From Pseudomonadota bacterium (lineage in GTDB: Bacteria; Bdellovibrionota_B; Oligoflexia; Oligoflexales; CAIYRB01): a stretch of DNA of 36,775 nt. Position numbers and translations under genes: made by a program. The stretch covers positions 1 to 36,775 of the forward strand of contig JAYWBY010000202.1 of NCBI GenBank assembly GCA_043781115.1. Reading direction: 5' to 3'. Shown piece by piece: positions 18,295 through 35,087 of this stretch. A model generated the notes under the pieces. The model was not told the DNA's origin, did not search any database, and saw only the letters and a list, made by a program, of their open reading frames with translations. Position 1 is the first letter of the stretch, and each line of letters begins with the position of its first letter.

Positions 18295-18693
18295 TTACTT
18301 GTCCTTGTCGACCGAAGCCAGCGAAATGTCGTGGGTCGGCGCGGCGAGCGGCTGCGTTCCGTCCGGCGCGTGAGGGGCTGGGGCGGGCGTCGCTTCAGGC
18401 TTCACCACGCCGCTCACGACAGTGCCGGATTCGATGGCTTGGACCGTCGTGACCGGCTTCGGAGCGCTGGCGGCGAGCATCGTGCGGAGATGCTCGGCCT
18501 CTTCCTTGCGGATCTCGTCTTCGGCTTCGCGGACGACCTGGTCAAACGTGCCGCGCACGTCGTTGGCCGTGCGGCGGACGTGGACAAAGAACTTGCCGGC
18601 TTGCTTCATCACTTCCGGCAAACGTTTAGGGCCGACGAAAATGAGAGCGACGATGGCGATGACCACCAGCTCAGAGAATCCGATGCCGAACAT
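18295..18693 (-). CDS. tatB: Twin-arginine translocase subunit, TatA/TatB family (TatB-like)
   Basis: The track ORF (to 18921) has an implausible N-terminal extension. The in-frame ATG at 18693 (GAGG 6 nt upstream) gives MFGIGFSELVVIAIVALIFVGPKRLPEV, which closely matches the TatB N-terminus. It is followed by an amphipathic helix and a Pro/Ala-rich tail. Confidence 0.8.
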   Translation of the reverse strand: MFGIGFSELVVIAIVALIFVGPKRLPEVMKQAGKFFVHVRRTANDVRGTFDQVVREAEDEIRKEEAEHLRTMLAASAPKPVTTVQAIESGTVVSGVVKPEATPAPAPHAPDGTQPLAAPTHDISLASVDKDK

Positions 18694-18802
18694 TCGGGAC
18701 CTCACGCGGTTTCTGACTGCCCGCCAGTCTAACCTGATTCTGGAGGGCCCGTCATCCTCAGGCTGCGCGACCCAGCTTGGTCGGGGTACGATGGAGCTCC
18801 AG

Positions 18803-20929
18803 ATGAGCCTAAAGGAATACAACCGCAAACGGCGCCCAGGTGAGACGCCGGAACCCGTCGGCGAGCGCAAGGTCGGCTCCGGCGAGCTGCGTTTCGTCAT
18901 CCAGCTCCACGAGGCGACCAAGCTCCACTATGACTTCCGCCTCGAACACGACGGGGCCTTCCAAAGTTGGGCGATCCCAAAGGGGCCTTCCCTAAACCCG
19001 AACGATCAGCGCCTCGCCGTTCACGTCGAAGACCATCCGATGGACTACGGCGACTTCGAGGGCGTCATCCCGAAAGGCAACTACGGCGCCGGCACCGTCA
19101 TGATCTGGGACCGCGGCACGTTCATCGAAAGGTCGGCGACGGGGCGCGAAGACAGCGAACAGAACTTCGCCAAAGGTATGGCGAAAGGTCACATCACCTT
19201 TCTTATCAGCGGCAGCAAGATCGGCGGCGAGTTCGCGCTCGTCCGCCTCGACAAAGACAACACAGGCAAAGCCTGGCTGCTCCTGAAGAAGCGCGACGAA
19301 TTCGCGACCTACAAAGTCGACGAGCCCCAAGAGGCCCGCTCCGCCGCAACCGGCCGCACGATGGCCGAGATCGCCGCGGAGGCCACTGGTAAGGGCGAAG
19401 TCTGGCTACCGGGCTCGGGCTTGGTGGAAGACGGCGTGCTGAAGCGCGGCTTGGCGAATGATCCGCCGTTGGCGAAACCCAAACGGATGAAGAAAGGCCT
19501 GACCGCGAAACCGCCGAGCGAAGAAGGCGCCTCGACCTCTTGGGACACCGCGCCAACCGAAGCTTTGCCGAGAAAGTTGAAGCCGATGCTTTTCACCGAA
19601 CTCGCGGGTGAATGCGAAGGCGAAGGTTGGCTCTATGAACCAAGGCCGGGTGGCGTCCGGGCCTTGGCCGAAATCGAAGGCGGCAGCGTTCGCCTCCATT
19701 CGAAGCAGTTTTTGCCCTTCGACCAGAGATACCCCGAAATCACGCGCGCCTTGCAACTCCCTGGGCGGAAGCTCGTCGTCGACGGCGAAATCGTCACCAA
19801 AGGTGAGTCACCGCGCAGCGCGTATTGGATCTACGACCTCCTGCATCTCGACGGCAAGAGCACCCGCGGTTTGCCGCTTTCGGAGCGGAAGCGCTTGCTC
19901 GCCGCGCTGCCATTTTTCGGCGACGTCTTGCGGCTCGTGCCGGACGCGCGGGACGAGCCGGCACCAGGGACGCAGGCTCGCCACTCGGCTAGCATTTATA
20001 AACCCGGGACGAGCTCCTTTTGGGTCAAGCCGCGCGACGGGGCGGCCCTCGACCGGCCGACGCTCACCAATTTGGGTCGCGTCTTCTGGCCGAAGGAAGG
20101 CTACACGAAAGGCGACGTCATTGAGTATTACCGCGCCGTCGCCCCGTTCATTCTCCCCTATCTCGCAGGCCGACCGGAGTCGATGCACCGGCACCCCCAC
20201 GGCATCGACGGCGAGAGTTTTTTCCAAAAAGACGTCTCGGGATATCTGCCGCCGTTCGTTTCGACGACGCGGGTCGAATCGAGCGAACGCACGATCGATT
20301 ATTTGATCTGCGACAACGAAGCGACGCTCCTCTACATGGCGAACCTCGGCTGCATCGAGCTCAATCCGTGGCTCTCGCGCGTGCCGCAATTGGACCGCCC
20401 GACCTTCGTCGTCGTCGATCTCGATCCCGCGGAACAGTCGTTCGCGGAAGTGGTAAAAGTCGCGAAGGTAGTGCAGGACGTCTTGCAAATGATCGGCGTC
20501 AAAGGCTTTCTCAAAACTTCCGGCTCGAGCGGCCTCCACATTTACCTGCCGGTCGACGGCAGTGTGAGTTACGACGAGGGCCGCGGGCTAACGGAGGCGA
20601 TTTGCCGGATCGTCGAAGCGCGCCTCCCCAATTTAACGACGATGGAACGGGCGCCGGCGCGGCGTGGCGGCAGACTCTATCTCGACTGCCTGCAAAACCG
20701 CCGCAGTCAGACGCTCGCGGCGCCTTATTGCGTGCGGCCACGGCCCGGCGCGACCGTCTCGGCGCCGCTCCATTGGTCGGAGTTGACCGAGACATTGACG
20801 CCCGCCGCATTTACGATCAAGACGATGCCCGGCCGCCTGAATGCGCTGGGCGACGTGTGGCAAGGAATCGACACGCAGCCGGTCGACGTCGCCGCCGCTC
20901 TCAGCCGGCTTTCTTCCCTAAAGGGTTGA
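18803..20929 (+). CDS. ligD: LigD-like multidomain DNA-repair protein: 3'-phosphoesterase, degenerate ligase remnant, primase-polymerase
   Basis: The track ORF begins at 18422. The in-frame ATG at 18803 (GGAG 6 nt upstream) gives the canonical MSLKEYNRKR..TPEP start; ATG 18791 is also possible. PE motifs: FVIQLHEATKLHYDFRLE, HVEDHP. Pol motifs: VVVDLDP, KTSGSSGLHIY. The central ligase-like segment is degenerate (see findings). Confidence 0.9.
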   Translation: MSLKEYNRKRRPGETPEPVGERKVGSGELRFVIQLHEATKLHYDFRLEHDGAFQSWAIPKGPSLNPNDQRLAVHVEDHPMDYGDFEGVIPKGNYGAGTVMIWDRGTFIERSATGREDSEQNFAKGMAKGHITFLISGSKIGGEFALVRLDKDNTGKAWLLLKKRDEFATYKVDEPQEARSAATGRTMAEIAAEATGKGEVWLPGSGLVEDGVLKRGLANDPPLAKPKRMKKGLTAKPPSEEGASTSWDTAPTEALPRKLKPMLFTELAGECEGEGWLYEPRPGGVRALAEIEGGSVRLHSKQFLPFDQRYPEITRALQLPGRKLVVDGEIVTKGESPRSAYWIYDLLHLDGKSTRGLPLSERKRLLAALPFFGDVLRLVPDARDEPAPGTQARHSASIYKPGTSSFWVKPRDGAALDRPTLTNLGRVFWPKEGYTKGDVIEYYRAVAPFILPYLAGRPESMHRHPHGIDGESFFQKDVSGYLPPFVSTTRVESSERTIDYLICDNEATLLYMANLGCIELNPWLSRVPQLDRPTFVVVDLDPAEQSFAEVVKVAKVVQDVLQMIGVKGFLKTSGSSGLHIYLPVDGSVSYDEGRGLTEAICRIVEARLPNLTTMERAPARRGGRLYLDCLQNRRSQTLAAPYCVRPRPGATVSAPLHWSELTETLTPAAFTIKTMPGRLNALGDVWQGIDTQPVDVAAALSRLSSLKG

Positions 20930-21251
20930 GCCGCGTGTGGAGTTCGGCGAGCTTGTCGTGATGATCGAGCGCTTCCAGTCCAAGGAGAAAACCCGAGCTT
21001 TCGGGAACCGCGCGGCTCCAGCGGACTTGGCAATTGATCTCGACCGTCCAGGGAAAGCTGGCGACGAGCTTCAGCTGCTCGCCTTGCTGATATTTTTTTG
21101 TCGCCCAAAGGCAAAGCCCTTCGGCGGAGACGTTCCAAACCAGCGCGATCTCGTCGGTACCGCCAGTGCGGTCGACGAGCCGGCCCTTGAACTCCTGCGG
21201 AGTCACGGGTAAGCGCTCGCTCGACCTCTTTGATTTCTTCTGGTTCGCCAT
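20901..21251 (-). CDS. PilZ-domain protein (predicted c-di-GMP receptor)
   Basis: 116 aa. RxxxR-type motif (KRSSER) followed about 30 residues later by N-x-S-x-x-G (NVSAEG). GGAGG lies 5 nt upstream of the ATG. The 3' end overlaps the ligD 3' end by 29 nt (convergent). Confidence 0.8.
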   Translation of the reverse strand: MANQKKSKRSSERLPVTPQEFKGRLVDRTGGTDEIALVWNVSAEGLCLWATKKYQQGEQLKLVASFPWTVEINCQVRWSRAVPESSGFLLGLEALDHHDKLAELHTRLNPLGKKAG

Positions 21252-21389: not shown

Positions 21390-21986
21390 ATGAGCAAAAC
21401 CGACAAAAAAATCGACCCGTTCAAAACGAAGAAGACCAAGGCGCCGGCTTCGAAGACGAACGACACGGTGACGCCGCCGGCGCCCGTCGCCGAAGCGATC
21501 GATAAATTCCGCGAATACCAGGAACAAGCGCGCCACTTCGAAGGCGAAGCGACGATCCACAAGGACAAGGTCCAGGACTTCTGCCAAGCGGAATACACGC
21601 GCCGGCTCGCCAACGGCGTCCAGGGCTCCTTCAAAATTCTAGGCGACGAAACGATGGTGACCTACGTCGTCACCGAGTCGAGCGCCGGTCTCAGCGACGA
21701 AGACCGCGACCGGATCGCCGAACGTTGGGGCGTCGATGCCGCCAACGAATTGATCGTCCGCGACTACCAAAGCATCCGCTTCGACGGCGAAGTCCTGGCG
21801 GCGAACTACGACGAGATCGTCGGCGCCCTGCAGTCGCTGAAACCCGAGGTTTTGGAGCGTCTCTTCAAGCCGATGCTGATGAAGGCCGCCCCGGGCGCCG
21901 TCCAAGCGGCGAAGAAATACGCCAAGGCTCCTGGTGAGATGCAAGAAATCATTAAGGACCTGAAGATAAAAAACTATATAAAGTAG
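21390..21986 (+). CDS. Hypothetical protein with a Lys-rich N-terminal tail and an acidic helical core
   Basis: 198-aa ORF filling the gap between pilZ and xthA, on the same strand as and 23 nt upstream of xthA. Codon usage looks similar to its neighbours. I recognise no confident family, and there is no clear SD. Confidence 0.65.
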   Translation: MSKTDKKIDPFKTKKTKAPASKTNDTVTPPAPVAEAIDKFREYQEQARHFEGEATIHKDKVQDFCQAEYTRRLANGVQGSFKILGDETMVTYVVTESSAGLSDEDRDRIAERWGVDAANELIVRDYQSIRFDGEVLAANYDEIVGALQSLKPEVLERLFKPMLMKAAPGAVQAAKKYAKAPGEMQEIIKDLKIKNYIK

Positions 21987-22009: not shown

Positions 22010-22780
22010 ATGCTGCGTGTAGTTACTTGGAACGTCAATTCGATCGGGACACGGCTCGAGCGCCTCCTTGCGTTCTTGAAACGGCACGACCCCGACGTCG
22101 TCTGCTTGCAAGAGCTGAAGTGCATGGACGAGAAGTTCCCCTTCGATGCAATAAAGGCGGCGGGTTATCACGCCGCGGCCTTCGGCCAGAAGTCCTACAA
22201 CGGCGTGGCGCTTCTCTCGAAAAAGCCTTCGGAAACCCTACTCCGAAGCTTCGACGACGGCGTCGACGACGGCCAAGCGCGCGCCATCGTCGGCACCTTC
22301 GACGGCGTCAACGTCATGTCGGCTTACATCCCGAACGGCCAGGAAGTCGGGGCCGACAAGTATTTCTATAAGCTCAACTGGCTGGCACGGCTGCGACGTT
22401 TTCTCGACAAGCAGTACGATCCGTCGACTCCGCTGCTCGTAACGGGCGATTTCAACGTCGCACCGGGCGACTTGGACGTGCACGATCCCGCGAGTTGGAG
22501 GGAGAAGATTCTTTGCTCGACGCGCGAGCGCAACGCGCTGGCGGAAGTGCAAGACTTCGGCCTGGTCGATTCGTTCCGCCATCTCCATCCGACGGAGACA
22601 CAGTTCACTTGGTGGGATTACCGGATGCTCGGGTTCCAAAAGAACATCGGCCTCCGCATCGACTTGGTCCTCGCTTCGGCCCCGATGATCAAGCGTTTGA
22701 CCGCCTGCACCGTCGACCGTGACGAACGCAAAGGCGAAAAACCCTCGGATCATGCGCCAGTTATCGCTGACTTTAAATGA
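22010..22780 (+). CDS. xthA: Exodeoxyribonuclease III (AP endonuclease, EEP family)
   Basis: 256 aa. TWNVNS, DVVCLQELK, YNGVALLS, GDFNVAP, WWDYR, RIDLVL and SDHAPV motifs are collinear with Xth/ExoA. Confidence 0.95.
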   Translation: MLRVVTWNVNSIGTRLERLLAFLKRHDPDVVCLQELKCMDEKFPFDAIKAAGYHAAAFGQKSYNGVALLSKKPSETLLRSFDDGVDDGQARAIVGTFDGVNVMSAYIPNGQEVGADKYFYKLNWLARLRRFLDKQYDPSTPLLVTGDFNVAPGDLDVHDPASWREKILCSTRERNALAEVQDFGLVDSFRHLHPTETQFTWWDYRMLGFQKNIGLRIDLVLASAPMIKRLTACTVDRDERKGEKPSDHAPVIADFK

Positions 22781-22861: not shown

Positions 22862-23464
22862 TTGGCGTTGCCTGGGATTTTTGATTCGACGATTTTCACG
22901 AGACGACCGACCTTGTCTTTGTCCGCGTACATTAAAGCCATGCATCCGAAGACGGAGATCCGTCCCGATCGCGGCGCGATGAAGCGCGTGCTGGACGCCG
23001 GCTGGTGCGGGCAGCTGAAAATCCACGGGCACCGCGCGCAATTTCACATCTCGGCCGAACCGTCTCAAGCCGTACTTGCCTACAATCGCCAAGGCGAGTT
23101 TCATCAAAAGGCCGTGTCGGCGGCGCTCTCCGCCGAACTCCGCCGCCTCTTCGCTCCTGTCGTTGGTTGGACGGTCGTCGACGGCGAATGGCGCAAGTCC
23201 GAAGACCACGTCTACATCTTCGATTTGTTGAAGAAAGACGGGCAATTGCTGAAAGACCGGACCTACCTCGAACGGTGGGAAATGCTGCCGCGCGTCTACA
23301 CGTCGGCGAGCGTCGAGACGCTGCCTCTCTACCGAACCGTAGAGCGCTGTCTCGAAGCGCTGGAAAAGCCCGACGACTTCATCGAAGGCTTGGTCTTCAA
23401 GTCGCTTTCGACGCCCGGCTTCAACGACACGTCGATCGTCCGGTGCAGGAAGCGCCCAGGCTGA
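22862..23464 (+). CDS. Minimal ATP-dependent ligase-like nucleotidyltransferase (NTase domain only, no OB fold)
   Basis: TTG 22862 (GGAAGGA 8 nt upstream) or ATG 22940 (MHPKTEIR...). Covalent-nucleotidyltransferase motifs appear in the canonical order and spacing: I LKIHGHR, III VVDGEW, IIIa VYIFDLLKKDGQLL...YLERWEML, IV EGLVFKS, V IVRCRKR. The protein ends 2 residues after motif V. Confidence 0.75.
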   Translation: MALPGIFDSTIFTRRPTLSLSAYIKAMHPKTEIRPDRGAMKRVLDAGWCGQLKIHGHRAQFHISAEPSQAVLAYNRQGEFHQKAVSAALSAELRRLFAPVVGWTVVDGEWRKSEDHVYIFDLLKKDGQLLKDRTYLERWEMLPRVYTSASVETLPLYRTVERCLEALEKPDDFIEGLVFKSLSTPGFNDTSIVRCRKRPG

Positions 23465-26143
23465 TCAGCCGTGGGCGTCGAGCCAGTCCTTGCCGCTGCG
23501 AATGTCGACCTTCAGCGGCACTTTCGTCTCGAAGGCGTGTTCCATCCCCTGGCGGATCAAGGCCGTCGCCTTTTCGACTTCGCTCAGTGGGGCCGAGAAA
23601 ACCAATTCGTCGTGCACCTGCAGCAGCATGCGCGTCTTCATCTTGTTGCGCCGAAAGTCCGCTTGAATACGGATCATCGCCAACTTGATCAAGTCGGCGG
23701 CGCTGCCCTGGATCGGCGCGTTGATGGCGATATTCTCGCCGCGCGCCATCTGACCTTGGTTGGTGTCACCGATTTCTGGAATCGGGCGGCGCCGACCCTT
23801 CATCGTCACGCAGTAGCCCTTTTCCCTCGCCGATTCGACCAGGGTCTCGGTTAGGCGGTAAATTCCGGGATAGACCTCGAAATAGCGTTGAATGAATTCC
23901 TTCGCTTCCGCCAGCGTCACGCCCGTCTCTTGGGCTAGTCGCTGCGGTCCCATGCCGTAGATGATGCCGAAGTTGACCGCCTTGGCGCGCGAGCGCAGGA
24001 CTTGGTCCACGGCGGATTCTTTCACGCCGAAAATCTTCGCGGCAGTGACCGTATGGATGTCCAAGCCTCGCTTGAAGGCATCGATCAGCGACTCGTCGCC
24101 GGCTAGATGCGCCAAAAGGCGGATCTCGACCTGCGAGTAGTCGGCGGAAATGATGACTTCCCCTTCGCGCCCAGGCGTGAAGGCGCGGCGGATCTTCCGG
24201 CCTAGGTCGCTCCGCATCGGGATGTTCTGGAGGTTCGGCTTGTCCGAGCTTAAGCGGCCCGTCGCCGCGACCGTCTGCCGGAAGCTCGTATGAATGCGGC
24301 CCGACTTCGGGTTGATGAACTGGGGCAGCGAATCGACGTAGGTGTTCTTCAGCTTCGACACGGCCCGGTAGTCGAGGATGAGCTGCGGCACGGCGTGGCT
24401 CGCAGCCAAGCGTAGCAGCACGGACTCGTCCGTGCTGAAGCCGGTCTTGGTCTTTTTCATGCGCTTGATGCCGGCTTCATCTTGAAGCTTCAACTTTTCG
24501 AAAAGCAGCTCCTGCAGCTGCTTTGGCGAGTTGATGTTGAACTCTTGGCCGGCCGCTTGGTAGAGATTGGCTTCCACCTTGTTGCCTATGTCAGCCAACT
24601 CGTTCGAGTACTTATCCAGGAATTCGGCGTCAACGTAGATGCCAGTGCGCTCCATCTCGGCGAGGACGGGGATGAGCGGCATCTCGATTTCTTCGAAGAC
24701 CGCCGTCAACCCCATGTTGGCGATACGCGGCAGAATGGCGTCGGCGAGGCGCAAGAGCGTCAACGCTCGGCTCGCCGCGTCGCCCGCGACCGGGAGGTTG
24801 GGGTTGAAGCGGCCGACCAAGGCTTCCGTGGTGTGGTTGTAGTTATTCGGGTCGATGAGGTAGTCGGCTACTTCCAAGTCGACGAGGTTTGGGCCAAGGT
24901 CGATCCCGACGTTGTAGAGACCTTGCCAGGAGGTCTTCAGCGAGTGGCCGATCTTCTTCTTCTCGGGCTTGGTCAAGTAAGGGCGGATGAAGTAGACGCC
25001 CTCTTCGGTGAGCGGCAGCGCGAACGCCGAGCCGTCTTCCGTCGCGAGGCCGAGCAGCGACGGCTTGTCGGCGATGACGTCCGAACCGAAGCCAAACCCT
25101 TCCATGACGAAGGCGAAAGTCTTGGACTGGTCGAGCGCCGCCTTTAGCGAGGCTTGCGTCGCGGCGTCGTCTACGAGCACGCCCGTGGCCAATTCGATCT
25201 TCGCTCCGTCGACGGCGGGCGCGGAATCGATCTTCGCTTTGGCTTTGCCCTCGCTCTTTTCGAGGGTCTTCAGGACCTTGTTGGCCAGCGTTTTGAACTC
25301 GAACCGGTTGTAAAAGGCGGCCAGCTTGGCGTTGTTCGACGCCAAGTCGGGCGAACAAACCAGGTCCGGGAGCTTCAACGGCAGGTGGAGTTCCGTCGCG
25401 AGGGTGACCAGGCGACGAGACAAAAAGGCATCGTCCTTGCACCGCTCGAGGCCTTCCCGCTGCTTTTTCGCCGTGATCTTGTCGAGGTTGGCATAGATGC
25501 CCTCGAGCGACCCGTAGGTCTGTATCAATTGGGCGGCGCCCTTCTCTCCGATGCCTTGTACGCCTGGGACGTTGTCGACCGTGTCGCCGATCAAAGCCAA
25601 GCAGTCGACGACTTGCGCGGGCGTGCAACCGAACTTCTCCTTAACCCCTGCGACGTCGATGATCAGCGCCTCTTCGTTCTTCTTCGGCGCGTACATGAAG
25701 ATGTGATCGCCGATGATCTGCATGAAGTCTTTGTCGCCGGAGACGATGTAAGCGTCGAGATTCGGACCAGCGTAACGTTTGGCGAGCGTGCCGATGACGT
25801 CGTCGGCTTCCATGCCGGGCAGTCGCAGAAGCGGCATGTGAAAGTGCGAGAAGAGTTCGAAGATCAGCGGAATCTGCTGGCCAAGGTCGTCCGGCATCCG
25901 GTCGCGCGTGGCTTTGTACTCTTTGTAGATCTCGTGGCGGAACGTCGGCTCGGGAGTATCGGTGACGGCGACGAGATAGTGCGGGCGCTGCTCTTGGATC
26001 AGCTTGTTCAAGAACATCGCCGAGCCGTAGATTGCGCCGGTCGGCATCCCTTGGCTAGTGGCGAGCGAACTCCGGCCTAAGGCGTAGAAGCTCCTGAAGG
26101 CCAACGCCATCGCATCGATTATAAATAGTCGTTCCTTGGCCAT
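23465..26143 (-). CDS. polA: DNA polymerase I (5' nuclease, 3'-5' exonuclease-like domain, polymerase domain)
   Basis: 892 aa. N-terminal 5'-3' exonuclease (LFIIDAMALAFRSFYA, GDKDFMQ). Pol A motifs DYSQVEIRLLAH, RSRAKAVNFGIIYG and LQVHDELVF. Confidence 0.98.
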   Translation of the reverse strand: MAKERLFIIDAMALAFRSFYALGRSSLATSQGMPTGAIYGSAMFLNKLIQEQRPHYLVAVTDTPEPTFRHEIYKEYKATRDRMPDDLGQQIPLIFELFSHFHMPLLRLPGMEADDVIGTLAKRYAGPNLDAYIVSGDKDFMQIIGDHIFMYAPKKNEEALIIDVAGVKEKFGCTPAQVVDCLALIGDTVDNVPGVQGIGEKGAAQLIQTYGSLEGIYANLDKITAKKQREGLERCKDDAFLSRRLVTLATELHLPLKLPDLVCSPDLASNNAKLAAFYNRFEFKTLANKVLKTLEKSEGKAKAKIDSAPAVDGAKIELATGVLVDDAATQASLKAALDQSKTFAFVMEGFGFGSDVIADKPSLLGLATEDGSAFALPLTEEGVYFIRPYLTKPEKKKIGHSLKTSWQGLYNVGIDLGPNLVDLEVADYLIDPNNYNHTTEALVGRFNPNLPVAGDAASRALTLLRLADAILPRIANMGLTAVFEEIEMPLIPVLAEMERTGIYVDAEFLDKYSNELADIGNKVEANLYQAAGQEFNINSPKQLQELLFEKLKLQDEAGIKRMKKTKTGFSTDESVLLRLAASHAVPQLILDYRAVSKLKNTYVDSLPQFINPKSGRIHTSFRQTVAATGRLSSDKPNLQNIPMRSDLGRKIRRAFTPGREGEVIISADYSQVEIRLLAHLAGDESLIDAFKRGLDIHTVTAAKIFGVKESAVDQVLRSRAKAVNFGIIYGMGPQRLAQETGVTLAEAKEFIQRYFEVYPGIYRLTETLVESAREKGYCVTMKGRRRPIPEIGDTNQGQMARGENIAINAPIQGSAADLIKLAMIRIQADFRRNKMKTRMLLQVHDELVFSAPLSEVEKATALIRQGMEHAFETKVPLKVDIRSGKDWLDAHG

Positions 26144-26200: not shown

Positions 26201-26953
26201 TCAAGCCGACTTAAATAAATTGAAGGAACACACTTCCGGGCTGCCATCGGCCAGAATTTCGTTCCATGCCGGCTCGGCGCCCGGATCTTCGGCGTCCTCG
26301 CTCGCCTCTCCGCCGGCGCCTTGGACGTGCAGCCACTCCATGGCGCCTTCAAAGCCCAAACACACCGGCGAGATTTCGGTGCCGAAGGGCCGCATCGCGG
26401 GATGCGGATCGTCCGAGATGATGGCAAATTCGCGGATCAAAGCGCCCGCTTCTTGGCGTTGGCGCAGATCGAAGAGCACCGGCACGAGGAGGGAACTTCC
26501 GGAGGCCGGATTGAAGTTCGCCAGGACCAGACGGTTTTCGCGAGCCGAACCGAACCGCTGCGACGGCACCGCGAAACGGTTGAAGGCGCAGTTGGCTTCG
26601 TGAAGCGGGAGCAGTCCTTGGCCGAGCAGCATGCCGAGGTTCACCCATTCCGAGAAACTTTTTAGGACTAGCAGCCCGTGCTGGTGCGACAGCATGCGCT
26701 CCGCCCACATGTCGCCGCCAAGGCTCGCACGGTGGAGGACGTAAGAATTGAAGGCCATGCGCTCGGCGACGAGGCGACCGCCATTGCCTTGGCGAATGAT
26801 CACCGCCGGGTCATGGGCTTCGATCCGCTTCGGCGGCGCTTCATGCGCTGATGCGGGCCGCTCGTGCCACGCCGTGACGTCATCGAGGCGCGTCAGATTA
26901 AGGCGCGCGGCAATCCGCTCCAACTCAGTTTCAACGATTGCGGAAACACACAT
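26201..26953 (-). CDS. Divergent SRAP (YedK/HMCES-like, SOS-response-associated peptidase) domain protein
   Basis: 250 aa, starting Met-Cys (ATG TGT, with GGAG 6 nt upstream). Collinear with the remembered YedK layout: MC..., ELERIAARLNL, PAVIIRQ.NGGR, LHRASL (where YedK has INARxE), LLVLKSFSEW (where YedK has the FEW glutamate), and FAIISDDPHPAM. Several canonical catalytic positions differ. Confidence 0.5.
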   Translation of the reverse strand: MCVSAIVETELERIAARLNLTRLDDVTAWHERPASAHEAPPKRIEAHDPAVIIRQGNGGRLVAERMAFNSYVLHRASLGGDMWAERMLSHQHGLLVLKSFSEWVNLGMLLGQGLLPLHEANCAFNRFAVPSQRFGSARENRLVLANFNPASGSSLLVPVLFDLRQRQEAGALIREFAIISDDPHPAMRPFGTEISPVCLGFEGAMEWLHVQGAGGEASEDAEDPGAEPAWNEILADGSPEVCSFNLFKSA

Positions 26954-27073: not shown

Positions 27074-27111
27074 TCTCGTGACATTCCCCGTTGGTGCCGC
27101 GGAGCTTGGCA

Positions 27112-27936
27112 ATGCCTGAGATTCTTGTCGGGTTCTCCGGTTGGACTTATGCACCTTGGCGAGGGGTCTTCTACCCTCCTAAGTTGGCGCAGAAGCGCGA
27201 GCTAGAGCACGCCAGCAGGCAGGTGAACTCCATCGAGATCAACGGGACGTTCTATCGGCTGCAAAAGCCGGCAACGTTTCAGCAGTGGCATGCGCAAACG
27301 CCGCCCGGCTTCCGCTTCGCCGTCAAGGCTTCGCAGTTCATCACGCACAGGCGCCGCCTGAAAGAGGTCGAGCAGCCGCTGGCGAACTTCTTCGCCTCCG
27401 GTCTCTTGTGCCTGAAGGACAAGCTTGGTCCGCTGCTTTGGCAATTCCCCCCAAACCTACCTTTGGTCGACAGCCGCTTCGAGGACTTCATCGCGCTTTT
27501 GCCGCAGAGCTCCGAGGCCGCAGCAGCCTTGGCCAGCCGCCATGACAGCTTCGTCGAAGGCCGTAGCCACACCGATCCCGGCGGTAGCTACCCCATTCGC
27601 CACGCCTTCGAATTTCGCCATCCGAGTTTTGACGACCCGGATTTTTTTGAAGTTCTCCGGCGTCACAAGATCGCCCTGGTCATCGCCGACGCCGGCGCAC
27701 ATTCGCTGAAGATGGACGAGCCGACGACCGACTTCGTCTACCTCCGCATGCACGGCCAGGATCCCGAATATGTCGACGGTTACACCGACGAGGCGCTGCA
27801 GGCTACCGCCGGGCGCGTGCGCGCTTGGGCCAAGTCCGGCCGCTCGGTCTATGTTTACTTCGACAACGACGAAAAAGCCCATTCCCCGCGTGACGCCAAG
27901 CGGCTCTCCGATATTTTGTCCTTAAAAAACAAATAG
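27112..27936 (+). CDS. DUF72 (YecE-like) family protein
   Basis: In-frame ATG at 27112 (GGAG 7 nt upstream). ILVGFSGWTYAPWRGVFYP, SIEINGTFYRL, FRFAVKASQFITH and LGPLLWQFPP are typical DUF72 blocks. Confidence 0.9.
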   Translation: MPEILVGFSGWTYAPWRGVFYPPKLAQKRELEHASRQVNSIEINGTFYRLQKPATFQQWHAQTPPGFRFAVKASQFITHRRRLKEVEQPLANFFASGLLCLKDKLGPLLWQFPPNLPLVDSRFEDFIALLPQSSEAAAALASRHDSFVEGRSHTDPGGSYPIRHAFEFRHPSFDDPDFFEVLRRHKIALVIADAGAHSLKMDEPTTDFVYLRMHGQDPEYVDGYTDEALQATAGRVRAWAKSGRSVYVYFDNDEKAHSPRDAKRLSDILSLKNK

Positions 27937-28001
27937 TTACTGTTTTACAGAAGCGCTTGGTTGTGCTAAATCAGGCTAGTACCTAGTGGGAGCGCCTTTT
28001 C

Positions 28002-28988
28002 ATGTTCATCGTTACCGGCGGAGCAGGGTTCATCGGCAGCGGTCTCGTGTGGAAGCTCAACGAAGAAGGGCTTCGCGACATCGTCATCGCCGACCGCATG
28101 GGCACCGGCGCCAAGTGGAAGAACTTGGCGAAGCGCCGCTTTTCGACCGTCCTGCACAAGAACGACCTCTTCAAGTGGCTCGCCGAAGTCGGCGTGCGCC
28201 GTGAGGTCGAGGCGGTGTTCCATCTCGGCGCGAGTTCGGCCACGACCGAAACCGACGTCGACTACTTGATGCAGAACAATCTCAATTATTCGATCAACCT
28301 CTGGAATTTCTGCGCCGAGTACGAGGTCCCTTTCATCTACGCCTCGTCGGCGGCGACCTACGGCGACAAGGAAAAGACCTTCGTCGACGACCCCGCCACG
28401 ATGCCCAGCTTGAAGGCGTTGAACCCGTATGGATTCAGCAAGCAAAAGTTCGACGACTGGGCCATGCAGCAGACCAACACGCCACCCTTTTGGGCCGGCC
28501 TCAAATTTTTCAACGTCTACGGACCGCAGGAATACCACAAAGGGTCGCAGTCGAGCGTCGTCTACCAATTCGTGCCGCAAGTCAAAGAGTCGGGCACAAT
28601 AAAGCTTTTCAAATCGTATCGCGATGGCGTCGGGCATGGCGAACAAAAGCGCGACTTTGTTTACGTCAAGGACTGCATCGACGTCTTGTGGCATCTCTAC
28701 GCGAACAAGAATCGCGCCCAGTCGGGGATCTATAACGTCGGTTCGGGCAAGGCGCGGAGCTTCGCCGATCTCGCGAGGGCAACGGCTAAGGCGATGGGCA
28801 AACCCGAGACCCGTCTCGACTTCATCGACATGCCCGAGACCTTGCGCTCCCAGTACCAGTATTTCACGGAAGCGAGCCTCACCAATTTGCGCGAGCGCGC
28901 TGGCTATCAAGCGCCCATGACCAGTATCGAGGATGGCGTTCGAGACTACGTTCAAAAATACCTCGTGGCCGATGACCCGTTCCTTTGA
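28002..28988 (+). CDS. hldD: ADP-L-glycero-D-manno-heptose 6-epimerase
   Basis: 328 aa. MFIVTGGAGFIGS, FHLGASS, ASSAATYG, YGFSK, FFNVYGP.E.HKG and KRDFVYVKD are collinear with E. coli RfaD/HldD. Confidence 0.93.
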   Translation: MFIVTGGAGFIGSGLVWKLNEEGLRDIVIADRMGTGAKWKNLAKRRFSTVLHKNDLFKWLAEVGVRREVEAVFHLGASSATTETDVDYLMQNNLNYSINLWNFCAEYEVPFIYASSAATYGDKEKTFVDDPATMPSLKALNPYGFSKQKFDDWAMQQTNTPPFWAGLKFFNVYGPQEYHKGSQSSVVYQFVPQVKESGTIKLFKSYRDGVGHGEQKRDFVYVKDCIDVLWHLYANKNRAQSGIYNVGSGKARSFADLARATAKAMGKPETRLDFIDMPETLRSQYQYFTEASLTNLRERAGYQAPMTSIEDGVRDYVQKYLVADDPFL

Positions 28989-30309
28989 GTCGCGGCTGAC
29001 GTTGCTCGCTGCTTGGATGTGGCTGGCCTCCTCGGGAACCGCCTCGGCGGTTCCGCCTGAGACGACGTACCACATCGTCAGCGTCGAAATGTCGGGCCTC
29101 GAGCGCACCGACCCCGATTGGCTCGAAAGCTACGTCGACTACCAATTCCCGGCCGAACTCACCGAAGGCGACATTCAGCGGCTCCAACGAAAGTTGATGA
29201 CCACCGGTGTCTTCACCGACGTCAAGATCGTCCCCGAGCCGAGTTTGTCGACTCCGGGCGGCTACCGCATGCACGTCCTGGTCGACGAAAAGTGGACGAC
29301 GATTCCCGTCATCCGGGGCGTCTACGGCGGCGGCACGCCCCTGCGCATTCTAGGCATGTACGACATCCATTCGTTCGGCCGCCTCTTGACGCTCGGCGCC
29401 GAAATGCGCCGTTACGGCGACGCACCGCCGGGCTTCGTCGTCTATGGGCGGGACCCGCGCAGCCATGCCGGCCGCTACTATCTCGGCGCCGAATTCTGGC
29501 GCGATTTCCACCGGCGCACTGTTTACGACCGTGAGGGCGAGCGCTTGGGCGCCGTCAGCACCAATGCCTCCATCAGCCGCGTCAAACTCCTCACGCCTTT
29601 GTCCGCCGAGTCCGGAAGTTACGCATGGAAATACGGCTTCGATTTTGAAGTCGTCCAAGAGGCGCCGTCCGTCTTCGACCCAGAAGGGGACGAGCCCAAG
29701 CGGCCGCCGAAGGACTTGACGGTTTCGAACGAGAGGCGCATCCAGACCAAGGCTTTGCCGACGCTGCTCTTCGACGACATCGAGGTCAACACGATCGAGT
29801 TCGACGGATTGAGAGCCAAATTGAAAGCGGGGCCCCTCATCGACCGGTCGATCGTTCACAGCACCGGCGAGCTGGAAACGTTCTACTACAAAATCTTGCC
29901 GCGGGGTTGGAACGTCGGCGTTCATGCGGTCGCCGGCCAGTCGACTTTCAATTCGCTGCAGAGTCAGTACTTCCTCGGTGGGCTTGATTCGATTCGCGGC
30001 TTGTCGGACGGCGCGCTTTACGGGACGCACGCCACGTGGGCGAACGCGGAACTGCGGCACTTGTTTCTGAAGAGCAAATACCTGTGGCTGCAAAATGCGA
30101 TGTTCGTCGACGCGGGTGGCGCCGGTGAAACGTGGCGCGACGCCAGCCGCGACGTGCGAGCAACGGCGGGAGTCGGTTTGCGCTTCGCCGTGCCGCAGGT
30201 CTACCGGCTTCTCCTCCGGATCGATTACGCGTGGAGCATCGACGGCAGCCATTCGCAGGGCGTGACGGCCGGGATGAATCAGTTTTTCGAGCCTTACACG
30301 CCGCTCTGA
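28972..30309 (+). CDS. Omp85-family outer-membrane protein (single POTRA-like domain plus surface-antigen beta-barrel)
   Basis: ATG 28972 gives the signal peptide MTRSFESRLTLLAAWMWLASSGTASA; ATG 28933 is also possible. POTRA-like HIVSVEMSGLERTDPDWLESYV...VFTDVKIV. Barrel end motifs YFLGGLDSIRG and GVGLRFAVP...LRIDYAW. Overlaps hldD by 17 nt. Confidence 0.78.
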   Translation: MTRSFESRLTLLAAWMWLASSGTASAVPPETTYHIVSVEMSGLERTDPDWLESYVDYQFPAELTEGDIQRLQRKLMTTGVFTDVKIVPEPSLSTPGGYRMHVLVDEKWTTIPVIRGVYGGGTPLRILGMYDIHSFGRLLTLGAEMRRYGDAPPGFVVYGRDPRSHAGRYYLGAEFWRDFHRRTVYDREGERLGAVSTNASISRVKLLTPLSAESGSYAWKYGFDFEVVQEAPSVFDPEGDEPKRPPKDLTVSNERRIQTKALPTLLFDDIEVNTIEFDGLRAKLKAGPLIDRSIVHSTGELETFYYKILPRGWNVGVHAVAGQSTFNSLQSQYFLGGLDSIRGLSDGALYGTHATWANAELRHLFLKSKYLWLQNAMFVDAGGAGETWRDASRDVRATAGVGLRFAVPQVYRLLLRIDYAWSIDGSHSQGVTAGMNQFFEPYTPL

Positions 30310-30313
30310 CTTA

Positions 30314-31168
30314 TCAAGAATTGCGGTTGCACGGCATAGTCTCAGTCACGGCCTTTGTGCCATCGGTCGCAGTCGTCATGCGCCTGACGTTCATTAGATT
30401 GGTGCCAAGCGTGTTGGCCCGCAGCTCGAGGCCTTTGTATTTGTCGGTCTTGGCGTTCGTCACCGTCAACACGGCGTCGGCGTCGGTTTGGCCCCTGGTG
30501 ATGGCCACTGAGCCTGTCATCCAGATGCTCTCGCGGCCGCCGCGTGGGTCGAAGACGTCGAGGGCGAAGGACGTCTCGTCCTTGACGGTGATCTTCCAAG
30601 AAAAACTGTTGATGCCGCTGCAGATCCAGTCGCCGACGACGGCATCGGCCGCGGGTTGATCGGTGCCGTCCGCGGTTCCGGTTCCGGTCGTAGCTTTGCC
30701 TCGAACGAGGCGCAACGTGATGCGGTCGTTGTAGAGCTCAAGGGCGTCACCGACCAGGTCGTAACTCATGTCCGTGCTGGTGTTAGGCAGTCCGACGGTC
30801 GACAGGTTGGACGTCGTGACGTCGAGAAGGAGGTCTTTGCCTTGGAAGTCATGGTACGTGCCTTTGACCTCCACTTTTTCGAGAAGAGGCAAAGTGAAAG
30901 TGAACGTGCCGGTCTTGGCTTTGTCGTCCGCTGGGATGAAGTTGGCGACGGCGGACGTCTCACGAAGACTCGAACCTTCATCGGCGACTTTGTTCTTATA
31001 GTTGCCCTTCCAGTCCCCGACGATCCACGAAGACTGGGCTTCGGCGTCCGCGCCCGTCGCGCCAGGCAACCCGCCTGAGACGCCCGAGCCGCCGCTGCAT
31101 CCGTAACCGACCAGAAGCAGTAGCGGGAAGAATGGGAATTTGATGCTTAACCAAGCGGATTTGGGCAT
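30314..31168 (-). CDS. Hypothetical lipoprotein with an internal two-domain duplication
   Basis: 284 aa. Lipobox LLLVGYG|C. Two similar halves begin WIVGDWKGNYKN and AVVGDWICSGIN. GGAG lies 7 nt upstream of the ATG. Confidence 0.72.
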   Translation of the reverse strand: MPKSAWLSIKFPFFPLLLLVGYGCSGGSGVSGGLPGATGADAEAQSSWIVGDWKGNYKNKVADEGSSLRETSAVANFIPADDKAKTGTFTFTLPLLEKVEVKGTYHDFQGKDLLLDVTTSNLSTVGLPNTSTDMSYDLVGDALELYNDRITLRLVRGKATTGTGTADGTDQPAADAVVGDWICSGINSFSWKITVKDETSFALDVFDPRGGRESIWMTGSVAITRGQTDADAVLTVTNAKTDKYKGLELRANTLGTNLMNVRRMTTATDGTKAVTETMPCNRNS

Positions 31169-31361: not shown

Positions 31362-34300
31362 TCAACCCGAGGTGGCGCCTTCGACGGCCCGGTCGGAGGT
31401 CGGAGCACCGGCGATTTGCGGCGCTTTTTCCTCTTTGAAGGCTTTGCGGAGGTGCGAAGGCAGGTCCTTCTGCATGTCGACGCCGACAACTTTGGAAACG
31501 CCAGGCTCTTGCATCGTGATGCCGTAGAGCGTGTCGAGCACTTCCATTGTGCGGCGGTTGTGGGTGATGACGATGAACTGGAACTGGGGCGACAGCGCTT
31601 CCAACACGCGGTTGTAGCGGCCGACGTTGGCTTCGTCGAGCGGCGCGTCGACTTCGTCCAGGAAGCAATACGGGGTAGGCTTGGTCTTCAGCAACGCGAA
31701 GATCAAGGAGATCGCCGTCAAAGCCTTCTCTCCACCGGAGAAAAGACTCATCGGCTTCTGGCTCTTGCCGGGCAAGCGGCAGAGGATCTCGACGCCGCCT
31801 TCCATCGGGTTGTCGGGGCTCGTCATCTCGAGCTTGCCTTCTCCCGTGGGGAAAAGGATCGGGAAGAGCTGGCCGAATTCGAAGTTGATGCGTTCGAAGA
31901 CTTCCAGGAACTTCCGGAGCGACGTCTCTTCGATCTCGCTGATCGCCGCGGTCAGGAGGTCGATGCTGGAGACGACCTCGTCGCGCTGCTTGGTAATGAA
32001 GTCCCGGCGCTCGGTCTTGTCCTCGAATTCCTTCAGGGCCATCATGTTGATGGCGCCCATGCCTTCGATCTTGTTGCGGAGCCGCGATACCGACCGCGAC
32101 TTGGAGTCGTGGTTGAACTCCGGGTCGATGTCGAAGCGGTAGGCGTCGAGGTCGAGCTTGTACTTCTCCACGGCTTGCTCGGTGACGCCGGCCAGCGCCA
32201 TGCGCACGCGCTCGAGTTCGACGTTCTTCGTCGCCAAAGTCCGCTGCAAGGAGTTTTGGGTCTCCCGCAGTGTCCGGAGGCGGTTGTCGATGACCCGGGT
32301 CTCTTCGATGAGGCCGGCGTTGGCTTCGCGCTTCGAGGCAAACTCGTCCTGAAGCTTCTCGCGTTCGCGGATCGACTGCTCAATGTCGACTTTCGCCTGC
32401 ACTTCTTCGCGGCGGGCGGCCGAAATATCGGACTCGAGGCGAGTGCGCTCTTCGTAGCGGCGCGACAGCTTATTCTGCAGAAGCTCGAGCTGCGCCTTCG
32501 TCGTCAGGAAGCTGTCGCGGAGAGCCTGGGCGCGGGCGCCCGATTTGGCTTCTTCGATCTTCTTCGACTCGTGTTGGCGGCGGACCTCTTCCTTGCGCTC
32601 GATCAGCGCTTCGGATTCGCCCTCGATGTTGGTCAGTTCGGCCTTGGCGCTGGTCAACTCGCGTGACAACGAGAAGCGGTTTTTGGAGAGCGTCTCGCGC
32701 TCTTCCGTGAGGCGCTGCTCGGTGGCGCGGTGCTTGGCGACGGCGGACTCGGCCGTCTCGATCAGCTCTCGTTTACGGTCGAAGACTTGCTGAACGGCCT
32801 GCTGGGCCGACATGACTTCCAGCACTTCTTTGTTCTGGGCTTGTAGCTTGGCGTCGATCTCCGCGACGACTTGGCGGTCTTCGTTGATCTTGAACTCGAG
32901 CTCGTCGATTTCCGCTTGAGCACGGCCGAGGCCGCCTTCGACGACCTTCAAATCCTTGGCGAGGCTCTCGAGTTCGGTCTTCCTGGTCAAGAGGCCAGGA
33001 GCGCCCTTCCCTCCGACGACGAACTCGTCGATGGCGTTGAACGACACGCCTTGGGCGGTGAAGACGATGACGCCGCGCGGCAAGTTCGCCAACGACTGTT
33101 CGTCGAGCGCCAGGTTCGACAAGAGGTAGAGACGGTCGATGATCGTGTCGAGGCCGTCGATGCGGCGCTCGATCTTGAGGTATTGCCGGAGCGACTCGGC
33201 GCCATTGGCGTCGGCCCACGCCATCACTGCGGCCGTGTCGACCTTCTCGCACTGGGAGAGGACGGTGACCGGCAGGGTGCCTAAGCCGTGCTTGTGCGCG
33301 GTGCGAACTAGGTCGTTGAAGTTATTCAGGTCGCGGATCACCAGGCGCTCGGCCCAGCGTTCGAAGGCGAGCGCGGCCTTTTGCGGCAGCTCGACGGCCT
33401 TCGGTCCGAAAGCGATGAAGTCGGTGAGCAGGCCACTGACGACGTCGTCGATGCCGGGCGCGTCGGACTTGAGTTTGGCGAGTGAGCCGGCGACGTCGGT
33501 GGCCCCCTGGTCGAGCTCGGAGAGCGACGTGTAGCGTGCCTTGATCTCGTGGTACTTCTCGCGCAAGCCGTCACGGCGGACGTTGGCGTCTTTAATCTGA
33601 TGGTAGCGCTGGGCGACGGCCGCTTCGCGGTCGTGCTTTTCGCGGATCTCTTGGTCGAGACCGGCTTGCGTGGCGCCGGCGCGCTTTTCGGCGGCGCGGA
33701 GGTCGACCTCGACGGTCTTGATTTCGTCGCTGAGCACGGCGCGGCGTTGGTCTTCTTCCGAGGCTTCGCGGTGGGCGCGTTCGATGTCCTTGTCGAGGCC
33801 TTCGGCGCGGATCTTGTTGCTTTCGATCAAGCGCTCGAGGTTTTTGATCTCATCTTCGAATTCGTCCATCCGGCTCTGGTAAACCTGGGCGGCCTCGTTG
33901 GCGTTCTCGACCTCTTGTTCGAAGCTCTCGATCGCTTCGCTGAGCGAGCGGGCGATGCTTTCGGCTTGGCTGAGTTCATGGCGCGCGCCGTCGACCTGGC
34001 TCTCGAGGACCTTGAGGTTGGCGTCGTCTTCCGCCAGTTCTTCCGAGATCGACGCGAGGCGGCGAGTGCCGGAATCCATGCGTTCGGTCGCGGACTTCAG
34101 CATCGACTCGGCGCGGGCGATCTTCTCGCGCATCAAAGCGATCGTCTCTTGCAGCGCCTGGATGTCTGGGTCGGCCTCGTCTAACTGGCCTTGGAGTTCG
34201 AGATGGCGGGCTTCCAAGCCGGAAATGTCGGCGAGCGTCTCGGCTTCCTTCGACAGTTCTCCGTCGAGCCCCGAGCGGAGCTTCGACTGCTCGGCTTTGA

Positions 34301-35024: not shown

Positions 35025-35087
35025 GGCGGCAATCTCTAAGCCTAAAAAAGGCACAAAGACATAGAGATATCATGCCTTTAGATGCCG

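Follow-up and report, generated by a model that had tools for sequence, protein, structure and literature searches.

LigD of the Pseudomonas aeruginosa type, which acts with Ku in non-homologous end joining (NHEJ), carries its 3'-phosphoesterase (PE), ligase (LIG) and primase-polymerase (POL or Pol) modules in the order PE-LIG-POL. In the excision repair system of mycobacteria, the ligase LigC, composed of a nucleotidyltransferase (NTase) domain and an OB domain, and the primase-polymerase Prim-PolC are separate polypeptides (PMC7470946). The minimal scaffold for ligation is NTase plus OB, and all characterised minimal DNA ligases retain the OB domain (PMC7470946); the RNA ligases bear a C- or N-terminal accessory domain (PMC1807946, PMC4408790). 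Here we analyse a LigD-like gene at positions 18803..20929 of contig JAYWBY010000202.1 (assembly GCA_043781115.1), which derives from a Pseudomonadota bacterium placed by GTDB in Bdellovibrionota_B (Oligoflexia; Oligoflexales; CAIYRB01). The whole 36,775 nt analysed are referred to as the window. An earlier reading of these letters, called the original prediction below, had proposed that the gene product has an inactivated ligase module, devoid of an OB domain, between intact PE and Pol modules.

The LigD-like protein shares with LigD the order of its modules, PE and Pol domains that pass the model cut-offs and have all known catalytic residues, and a middle module that is homologous to, and folds like, the NTase subdomain of LigD. 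It differs from LigD in that the motif I Lys and Asp are missing, motifs IV and V are degenerate, and the protein has neither an OB domain nor motif VI; furthermore, the gene and its short relatives are adjacent to genes for an orphan protein, U198, and for a bare NTase, NT200. By function and descent, the protein is a LigD derivative, whereas by the features that define LigD it fails to qualify. With LigC/Prim-PolC, the locus shares a ligase and a primase-polymerase on separate polypeptides, 3'-end-cleaning or excision enzymes (here an ExoIII-family enzyme, PE and DUF72) and a putatively Ku-independent logic of gap or nick repair. However, LigC comprises NTase and OB while NT200 is an NTase alone, the polymerase protein of the short form adds PE and a dead NTase, and U198 has no mycobacterial counterpart. 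NT200 has the same motifs I, III, IIIa and IV as minimal ATP-dependent DNA ligases (Lig E, Chlorella virus ligase) and RNA ligases (Rnl2; the Rnl5 enzymes DraRnl and NgrRnl), but at about 175-200 aa it has neither an OB nor an accessory domain and stops directly past an RxR motif V. We regard it as highly probable that the middle module is a pseudo-ligase scaffold, and as reasonably probable that the whole protein is a LigD derivative whose ligase module is now a non-catalytic folded NTase, with sealing handed to NT200. Taken by itself, the outsourcing of ligation to NT200 is slightly more likely than not.

The LigD-like protein and its middle module

The gene and its parts are as follows.

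18803..20929, plus strand: LigD-like gene, 708 aa, PE – pseudo-NTase – Pol, no OB (ORF and translation, Pfam, NCBIfam, 109 homologues)
18803..19312, plus strand: PE domain, aa 1-170 (PF13298, TIGR02777, invariant or near-invariant residues)
19568..20038, plus strand: pseudo-ligase NTase module, aa 256-412, about 157 aa (alignment with 1vs0, column statistics, AlphaFold2 and Foldseek)
19643..19645, plus strand: codon AGG (Arg281), where the adenylatable Lys of motif I would stand (direct read)
20063..20929, plus strand: Pol (AEP) domain, aa 421-708 (PF21686, TIGR02778, invariant motifs)

The reading frame is uninterrupted for 708 codons, and a longer open reading frame (ORF) starting at 18422 was ruled out as the gene, since all homologues begin MSLKEY. 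Pfam searches with the 708-aa product returned LigD_N (PF13298) at residues 34-148 (E 1.6e-40) and LigD_Prim-Pol (PF21686) at residues 435-686 (E 2.6e-90). The DNA_ligase_A_M match was limited to residues 269-332 (profile positions 15-82 of 204; 29.2 bits, cut-off 26.2), and there was no match at all to the OB domain model PF04679. In NCBIfam, the PE and Pol models were passed (TIGR02777, 205 bits with a cut-off of 144; TIGR02778, 245 bits with a cut-off of 214.7), whereas the model of the LigD ligase domain, TIGR02779, was covered at positions 2-127 of 302 and scored 57.6 bits vs a cut-off of 227.75. All whole-protein LigD models failed (NF004628, 523 vs 895; NF007210, 416 vs 989; TIGR02776, 317.5 vs 373.2 bits). 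In the source databases, automated annotation names the homologues "non-homologous end-joining DNA ligase".

The PE active site is represented by Q34, H36, H42, D44, R46, S55, H78 and Y82, which correspond at an offset of -6 to the set Q40, H42, H48, D50, R52, S61, H84 and Y88 of P. aeruginosa LigD (PMC8656161). In an alignment of 29 short forms (alignment A1), these catalytic residues are invariant or near-invariant, with H36, H42, D44, R46, H78 and Y82 invariant, so that the Mn-binding His-His-Asp triad and the Arg/His/Tyr phosphate ligands are present. The Pol motifs D539-x-D541, S573..H579 and D628 are invariant in the same alignment and have the spacing of their M. tuberculosis equivalents D137, D139, S172, H178 and D227 (PMC8656161); they make up the hhhDhD, sxH and hD motifs of the AEP type. 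Judging from these residues, both active sites remain intact in the 708-aa product.

The middle module gives a different picture. In the frame L-Y-E-P-R-P-G-G-V-R around the AGG codon, motif I reads E279-P-R-P-G-G-V-R286. Motif III (D327-G-E329) and motif IIIa (Y341..D345-L-L) are recognisable; motif IV is degenerate, with P388-G-T-Q-A-R393 lining up with the canonical EG(I/V)xAK, and motif V reads W407-V-K-P-R411. A phmmer search of the PDB aligned the module to the ligase domain of M. tuberculosis LigD (1vs0, 6nhx, 6nhz), where 'eprpgg' lies on 'egkwdg', which means K→R and D→G in motif I relative to 1vs0. The same two changes were obtained with MAFFT against 11 full-length LigDs, and this alignment also showed that the OB domain (about 130 columns) and a loop of about 17 aa between motifs III and IIIa are gone. 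Motif VI, which is lost together with the OB domain, serves the adenylylation step. AlphaFold2 modelling of residues 245-424 (51-sequence alignment) gave a pLDDT of 92.1 and a pTM of 0.87, and the best Foldseek matches of the model in the PDB were again 6nhz, 6nhx and 1vs0 (E 6e-11 to about 1e-10, TMq, i.e. the TM-score normalised to the query, 0.72, rmsd about 3 Å, 26-27% identity), followed by NTase domains of archaeal and human ligases. In the predicted structure, then, the middle module is a well-folded NTase domain, which has the fold and lacks the catalytic motif set (motif I Lys/Asp, motif IV Glu/Lys, motif V KxK); of the features by which LigD is recognised, the motif I Lys of KxDGxR, the OB domain with motif VI and agreement with the whole-protein models are all missing. 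The alignments show a ligase module without the residues for three-step ligase chemistry and without an OB domain, and on their evidence the known ligase mechanism is not available to the 708-aa protein.

Most of what the original prediction had read from the letters was borne out: the open frame, whose translation is exactly as quoted; the intact PE and Pol signatures; motif I as EPRPGGVR, with Lys replaced by Arg and Asp by Gly; recognisable motifs III and IIIa; WVKPR at motif V; and the missing OB domain. The profile searches it had proposed gave strong PE and Pol matches, a partial ligase match and no OB match, and the structure prediction returned an NTase fold with the M. tuberculosis LigD ligase domain on top. 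A Lys at the motif I position was looked for by alignment, and Arg281 was found to occupy the place of the Lys in 1vs0 and in 11 of 11 full-length LigDs. Two details had to be revised. Motif IV, said to be not recognisable, is degenerate instead, and the module, placed at 19577..20040 (aa 259-412), keeps its end but starts slightly earlier, at aa 256.

Conservation and origin of the short forms

A search of 5.8 billion proteins was made, and the 120 matches listed were all aligned and compared column by column between short and long forms. Among them, at least 109 are short forms of 604-796 aa with the same three Pfam domains and without PF04679, and 11 are full-length LigDs of 834-924 aa with PF04679. 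The short-form clusters, with identities of 43-66%, were assembled separately; those with a name come from metagenome-assembled genomes of Bdellovibrionales, Bdellovibrionia or Bdellovibrio (Bdellovibrionota). The OB domain is gone in 109 of 109 short forms and the loop of about 17 residues between motifs III and IIIa in approximately 91%. The catalytic columns compare as follows.

Motif I Lys: long forms, K in 11 of 11; short forms, D22, F11, L9, S8, H8, R7, E7, A6, Q6, K5, others
Motif I Asp: long forms, D in 11 of 11; short forms, G37, D27, E12
Motif IV Glu and Gly: long forms, conserved; short forms, unconstrained
Motif V first Lys: long forms, K; short forms, R30, K29, I20
Motif V second Lys: long forms, K; short forms, P23, R19, E15

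The motif I Lys column thus holds 17 different residues in the short forms, whereas positions of the fold are nearly invariant there: the Gly and the Arg of KxDGxR (108/109 each), the DGE of motif III (109, 109 and 101), the motif IIIa Asp (109/109), the Tyr and Gly of SxYxxG (109 and 105) and the motif V Trp (106). Mean pairwise column identity is 0.67 in PE, 0.58 in Pol, 0.39 in the pseudo-NTase and 0.13-0.27 in the linkers. With conservation above linker level, freely varying catalytic columns and fixed fold positions in the module, the column statistics show that the pseudo-NTase is retained under purifying selection as a structural module and not for catalysis, so far as substitution patterns can tell. 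Plausibly, it spaces or orients PE and Pol and provides a surface for docking or DNA binding. The original prediction had favoured retention as a pseudo-ligase scaffold over a broken gene and had called for a comparison of orthologues; the same architecture in at least 109 relatives, the free catalytic columns, the conserved module and its confident fold all speak for that description. In a neighbour-joining tree of PE plus Pol, computed without support values, the 109 short forms make up one bipartition, which suggests that the ligase was lost once, long ago, in the ancestor of a clade that now numbers at least 109 protein clusters.

Two members of this family, P0094 and P0096, have a complete motif I, EPKLDGLR. 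P0096 (L083:10001-12028, 'Proteobacteria bacterium SG_bin7') still has no OB domain, and its motifs IV and V are degenerate (HIAK; WLIVE); the two proteins may represent intermediate stages or reversions.

Another LigD whose ligase module is dead was found at L005:116-2308 (CAVUBF010000006.1, 'uncultured delta proteobacterium'). It consists of PE, NTase and Pol without an OB domain, reads ELAHGGYR at motif I (Lys→Ala, Asp→Gly), keeps the loop between motifs III and IIIa and matches positions 21-200 of the 204 of the Pfam ligase model. It clusters with full-length LigDs, outside the Bdellovibrionota clade (neighbour-joining), and none of U198, NT200 and Ku is encoded within 10 kb downstream. 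Its ligase loss is apparently of independent origin.

Neighbouring genes, NT200 and U198

Twelve short-form loci were compared, with ±10 kb covered around the loci in related genomes, and any count of carrier species is a lower bound: the window, L001, L002/L082, L003, L004, L006, L083, the P0015 contig, L084, L085, L086 and L087. L084 (labelled Bacteriovoracia) and L085 (labelled Oligoflexales) were found via U198, and L086 and L087 via NT200; these four of the 12 test the reverse association and are not independent samples of loci found through LigD. The genes concerned lie in the window as follows.

21390..21986, plus strand: U198, 198 aa, right after the short LigD (363 homologues, synteny in 12 of 12 loci)
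22010..22780, plus strand: Exonuclease III-family (Exo_endo_phos) gene, between U198 and NT200 in this lineage (PF03372, 1.3e-34)
22862..23464, plus strand: NT200, NTase-only ligase-like protein, 200 aa, no OB (PF09414, PF01068, motifs, hhalign)
23465..26143, minus strand: polA (DNA polymerase I), which converges on the NT200 gene and directly borders it (PF00476, PF02739, PF01367)
27091..27936, plus strand: DUF72 gene, 3.6 kb from NT200 beyond polA (PF01904, 7.7e-72)

In 12 of 12 loci, U198 and then NT200 follow downstream of the short LigD, and the outer flanks are wholly different. The compact order is short LigD, U198, NT200 and DUF72 on one strand, with gaps of 28-95, 33-152 and -27 to +49 nt, respectively; in L086 and L087 gaps measure 7-72 nt, and in L084 NT200 and DUF72 overlap. 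The compact cluster is an operon-like unit. DUF72 comes immediately after NT200 (-27 to +49 nt) in L082, L083, L084, L086 and L087. The order in the window is LigD-like gene, convergent PilZ-like ORF, U198, ExoIII-family gene, NT200, convergent polA and DUF72. L001, a separate assembly with an orthologue 66% identical to the window protein, has conserved synteny and the identical polA arrangement; the ExoIII-family gene has the same place in L001 and in the P0015 contig (911 kb) and lies about 6.1 kb past the NTase gene in L085, and polA is close by in the P0015 contig and L085. The association was also examined by tblastn within ±10 kb, with the proteins of the window as queries together with a Ku sequence from M. 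tuberculosis, which served as a probe only.

Nine short-form loci with DNA: U198 in 9, NT200 in 9, Ku in 0, DUF72 in 6
75 canonical full-length LigD loci: U198 in 0, NT200 in 0, Ku in 53 (adjacent), DUF72 in 12

The gene tables of the remaining short-form loci show no Ku either. DUF72 has been described as a TIM barrel with kinship to UV-damage endonuclease, and its genes are over-represented in the vicinity of damage-response genes (PMC11791011). It also stands near canonical Ku-LigD in unrelated phyla (L017, L041, L042, L056, L057, L059, L060, L063 and L071-L074), and its link with LigD may be a general repair association.

NT200 scores just above two Pfam cut-offs, RNA_ligase (PF09414, 27.6 bits, cut-off 27) and DNA_ligase_A_M (PF01068, 26.5 bits, cut-off 26.2), and reaches 17.9 bits against TIGR02779 (cut-off 227.75). 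Its homologues number 395; lengths run from 162 to 234 aa in the 120 listed, many of which share contigs with short LigDs. In an alignment of 121 sequences, K53, G56, H57 and R58 of motif I (Q-L-K53-I-H-G-H-R) are each present in all 121, D107 and E109 of motif III in 116 and 120, and F120-D121 of motif IIIa in 121, while the residues of motif IV (E175-G-L-V-F-K180) are found in 121, 121, 119, 120, 120 and 117. The protein ends I-V-R194-C-R196-K-R, so motif V is RxR and no room is left for an OB or accessory domain. By hhalign, NT200 matched the canonical LigDs at a probability of 92% (E 7.6e-7); K53 was paired with their motif I Lys, and EGLVFK with EGIIAK. It also matched the short LigD family (95%, E 2.8e-8) across the pseudo-NTase, where K53 fell on the dead column. 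A profile search of PDB sequences found the NTase domain of human LIG1, KYDGQRAQIH standing against KIHGHRAQIH. With the Lys nucleophile and motifs I, III, IIIa and IV present, and the KxK of motif V and the OB or accessory domain absent, NT200 looks like an active adenylyltransferase whose substrate may be DNA or RNA. By sequence, each locus thus looks to encode two homologous NTase domains, one dead and fused within LigD, the other seemingly live and free-standing. The database version of NT200 (P0121) has 174 aa and starts at Met27, whereas the ORF has a TTG start at 22862; residues 3-27 (L-P-G-I-F-x-x-T-I-F-S-R-R..., window 22862..22939) are conserved in most of the 121 homologues, and the deposited start was probably called too far downstream.

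U198 is the most conserved of the LigD-like, U198 and NT200 proteins. Its 363 homologues are 195-224 aa long, with 58-79% identity among those listed, and have a basic N-terminal tail that includes the near-invariant DPFKTKK and, at the C-terminus, a conserved KIKNYI(K/R). When 1.84 billion representatives were searched with a profile, 129 clusters at 50% identity were obtained, the full-length members of which have about 180-260 aa, are single-domain and essentially all stand alone; none of the 129 clusters contained a fusion to a known domain. The AlphaFold2 model is alpha/beta (pLDDT 82, pTM 0.65). Foldseek found no fold match for it in the PDB (best E 0.85, TM ≤ 0.22) and one marginal match in BFVD, to an uncharacterised marine-phage protein (E 2.4e-3, TM 0.36), and the profile search of PDB sequences returned nothing. 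Neither U198 nor its remote members belong to any credible family in Pfam, NCBIfam, PHROGs or PADLOC, where only sub-cut-off matches appeared (UvrB model, E 0.014; Cpf1 REC2, E 0.0059). Homology of U198 to Ku, Gam or an OB domain, by which it might substitute for one of these, was rejected, the structure, profile and family searches all being without a credible match. A reading of the set as a defence system was also rejected, as PADLOC was blank for all four proteins.

As to the remainder of the window, the PilZ-like ORF (20901..21251, minus strand, 116 aa), whose match to PF07238 stays below the cut-off (E 8e-4), runs towards the LigD-like gene and covers its last 29 nt; the same arrangement is seen at L001 (12102-12452) and is missing from remoter relatives. 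Upstream, the mechanical call of a Tat component ORF (18295..18921, minus strand; TatA_B_E family in relatives) runs into the start of the LigD-like gene. From its conserved start 'MFGIGFSEL', the real extent of the Tat gene is about 18295..18693, which leaves a divergent intergenic region of about 109 nt (18693..18803). Between 18.5 and 23.7 kb, sites resembling promoters or terminators were in no excess over shuffled sequence, and no Rfam match to an RNA element was found in the window. Genes of DNA metabolism are plentiful in the window outside the cluster as well; beside polA and the ExoIII-family gene, one encodes an SMC-type protein of 1230 aa (31362..35054, minus strand, SMC_N match). 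ORFs 26201..26953, 27966..29108, 30314..31168 and 35088..36569 had no Pfam match.

Alternative explanations and the proposed repair module

An artefact in a single metagenome-assembled genome, where a LigD pseudogene would be frameshifted, misassembled or in decay, might be considered on the grounds that AGG is one transition from AAG and that the window is a single 36.8-kb contig. We give this reading a negligible probability: 708 codons are open, architecture and synteny recur in an orthologue at 66% identity from an independent assembly, and PE and Pol are strongly constrained in a family where the OB deletion is common to 109 clusters, a conservation by which, at the level of the alignments, the artefact reading is already refuted. 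A single sequencing error AAG→AGG was likewise rejected, as the motif I column is variable throughout the family. It is also very improbable that the middle module is still an active ligase with a non-canonical nucleophile or a compensating Lys elsewhere, which would make the protein an unusual LigD. Such activity would be in line with the retained motif III Glu, motif I Arg and K/R at motif IV, and with the Lys that five of the 109 short forms have in the motif I column, two of them reading KLDG. However, the module contains no invariant Lys, its best columns being K/R mixtures; besides the variable motif I column, there is no constraint on the Asp of motif I, the Glu of motif IV or either Lys of motif V; and the OB domain, which is part of the minimal scaffold (PMC7470946), is gone in every short form together with motif VI.

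A rather unlikely explanation, though a better one than the preceding two, is that PE and Pol form a stand-alone end-processing enzyme and the housekeeping NAD+-dependent ligase LigA does the sealing, the dead NTase being a linker remnant and NT200 and U198 serving elsewhere, e.g., in RNA repair. The intact PE and Pol sites agree with this possibility, as do the equal fit of NT200 to the RNA_ligase and DNA ligase models of Pfam and the convergent gene between ligD and U198 in the window. Rnl2-type RNA ligases have His in place of the motif I Asp, and so does NT200 (KIHG). On the other side, the genes are associated in 12 of 12 loci over divergent flanks, compared with 0 of 75 canonical loci, and a functional unit is favoured by the short spacing in L086 and L087 (7-72 nt) and by the NT200/DUF72 overlap in L084. 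Moreover, a confident fold and conservation well above that of the linkers would be unexpected for a remnant.

Several points weigh against the reading that we prefer, in which the ligase module of a LigD derivative has become a scaffold and NT200 seals. The five short forms with a motif I Lys, including the two with KLDG, mean that some members of the family may have residual activity. NT200 is barely above the Pfam cut-offs and has RxR, not KxK, at motif V. The genes in the window are not one operon, as the PilZ-like gene splits ligD from U198 and the ExoIII-family gene is inserted, and genes for Ku or for a further ATP-dependent ligase could lie outside the ±10 kb that were covered. The putative functional link between NT200, U198 and LigD is drawn from synteny; these proteins are known from sequences and models, and our confidence in any specific role for U198 is low, such a role being a guess.

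In the preferred model, strand sealing would have moved to the co-clustered NT200, which has all adenylyltransferase motifs except the KxK of motif V. As the minimal scaffold is NT plus OB and NT200 has no OB domain, this bare NTase would be expected to need a partner, and U198, the dead NTase of LigD or both are candidates because they are always encoded with it. Repair might then proceed from incision through 3'-end cleaning by PE or ExoIII and a short ribo- or deoxynucleotide fill-in by Pol to sealing by NT200. Given that no Ku is nearby and that DUF72, ExoIII and polA are neighbours, the repair of nicks, gaps or damaged 3' ends is more likely than classical Ku-dependent end joining. A stronger version, that NT200 is a real polynucleotide ligase completed in trans, with U198 or the dead NTase supplying nick or end binding, in a Ku-independent Bdellovibrionota repair machine, is a tentative proposal that we consider possible but doubtful.

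We found no literature on a LigD with a dead ligase, on this operon or on the NT200 and U198 families in a library that was incomplete, so an earlier description may exist. Among the categories of an NHEJ survey (PMC7719229), none provides for a LigD whose LIG domain is dead, and surveys that score the presence or absence of NHEJ by counting LigD domains would misclassify these genomes. LigD is defined by its ligase, and yet at least 109 clusters carry a LigD-type enzyme that appears to be without the known ligase mechanism. The four-gene set offers a testable case of a pseudoenzyme domain kept in a multifunctional repair protein and gives a DNA-repair context to two families with no assigned function, U198 and DUF72, and NT200 is a candidate ligase below the accepted minimal NT plus OB scaffold. 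If sealing by NT200 in trans proves true, that scaffold, hitherto placed in one chain, would be lowered, and the bacteria concerned would possess a new DNA-repair pathway. Overall, the set points to an undescribed DNA-repair module.

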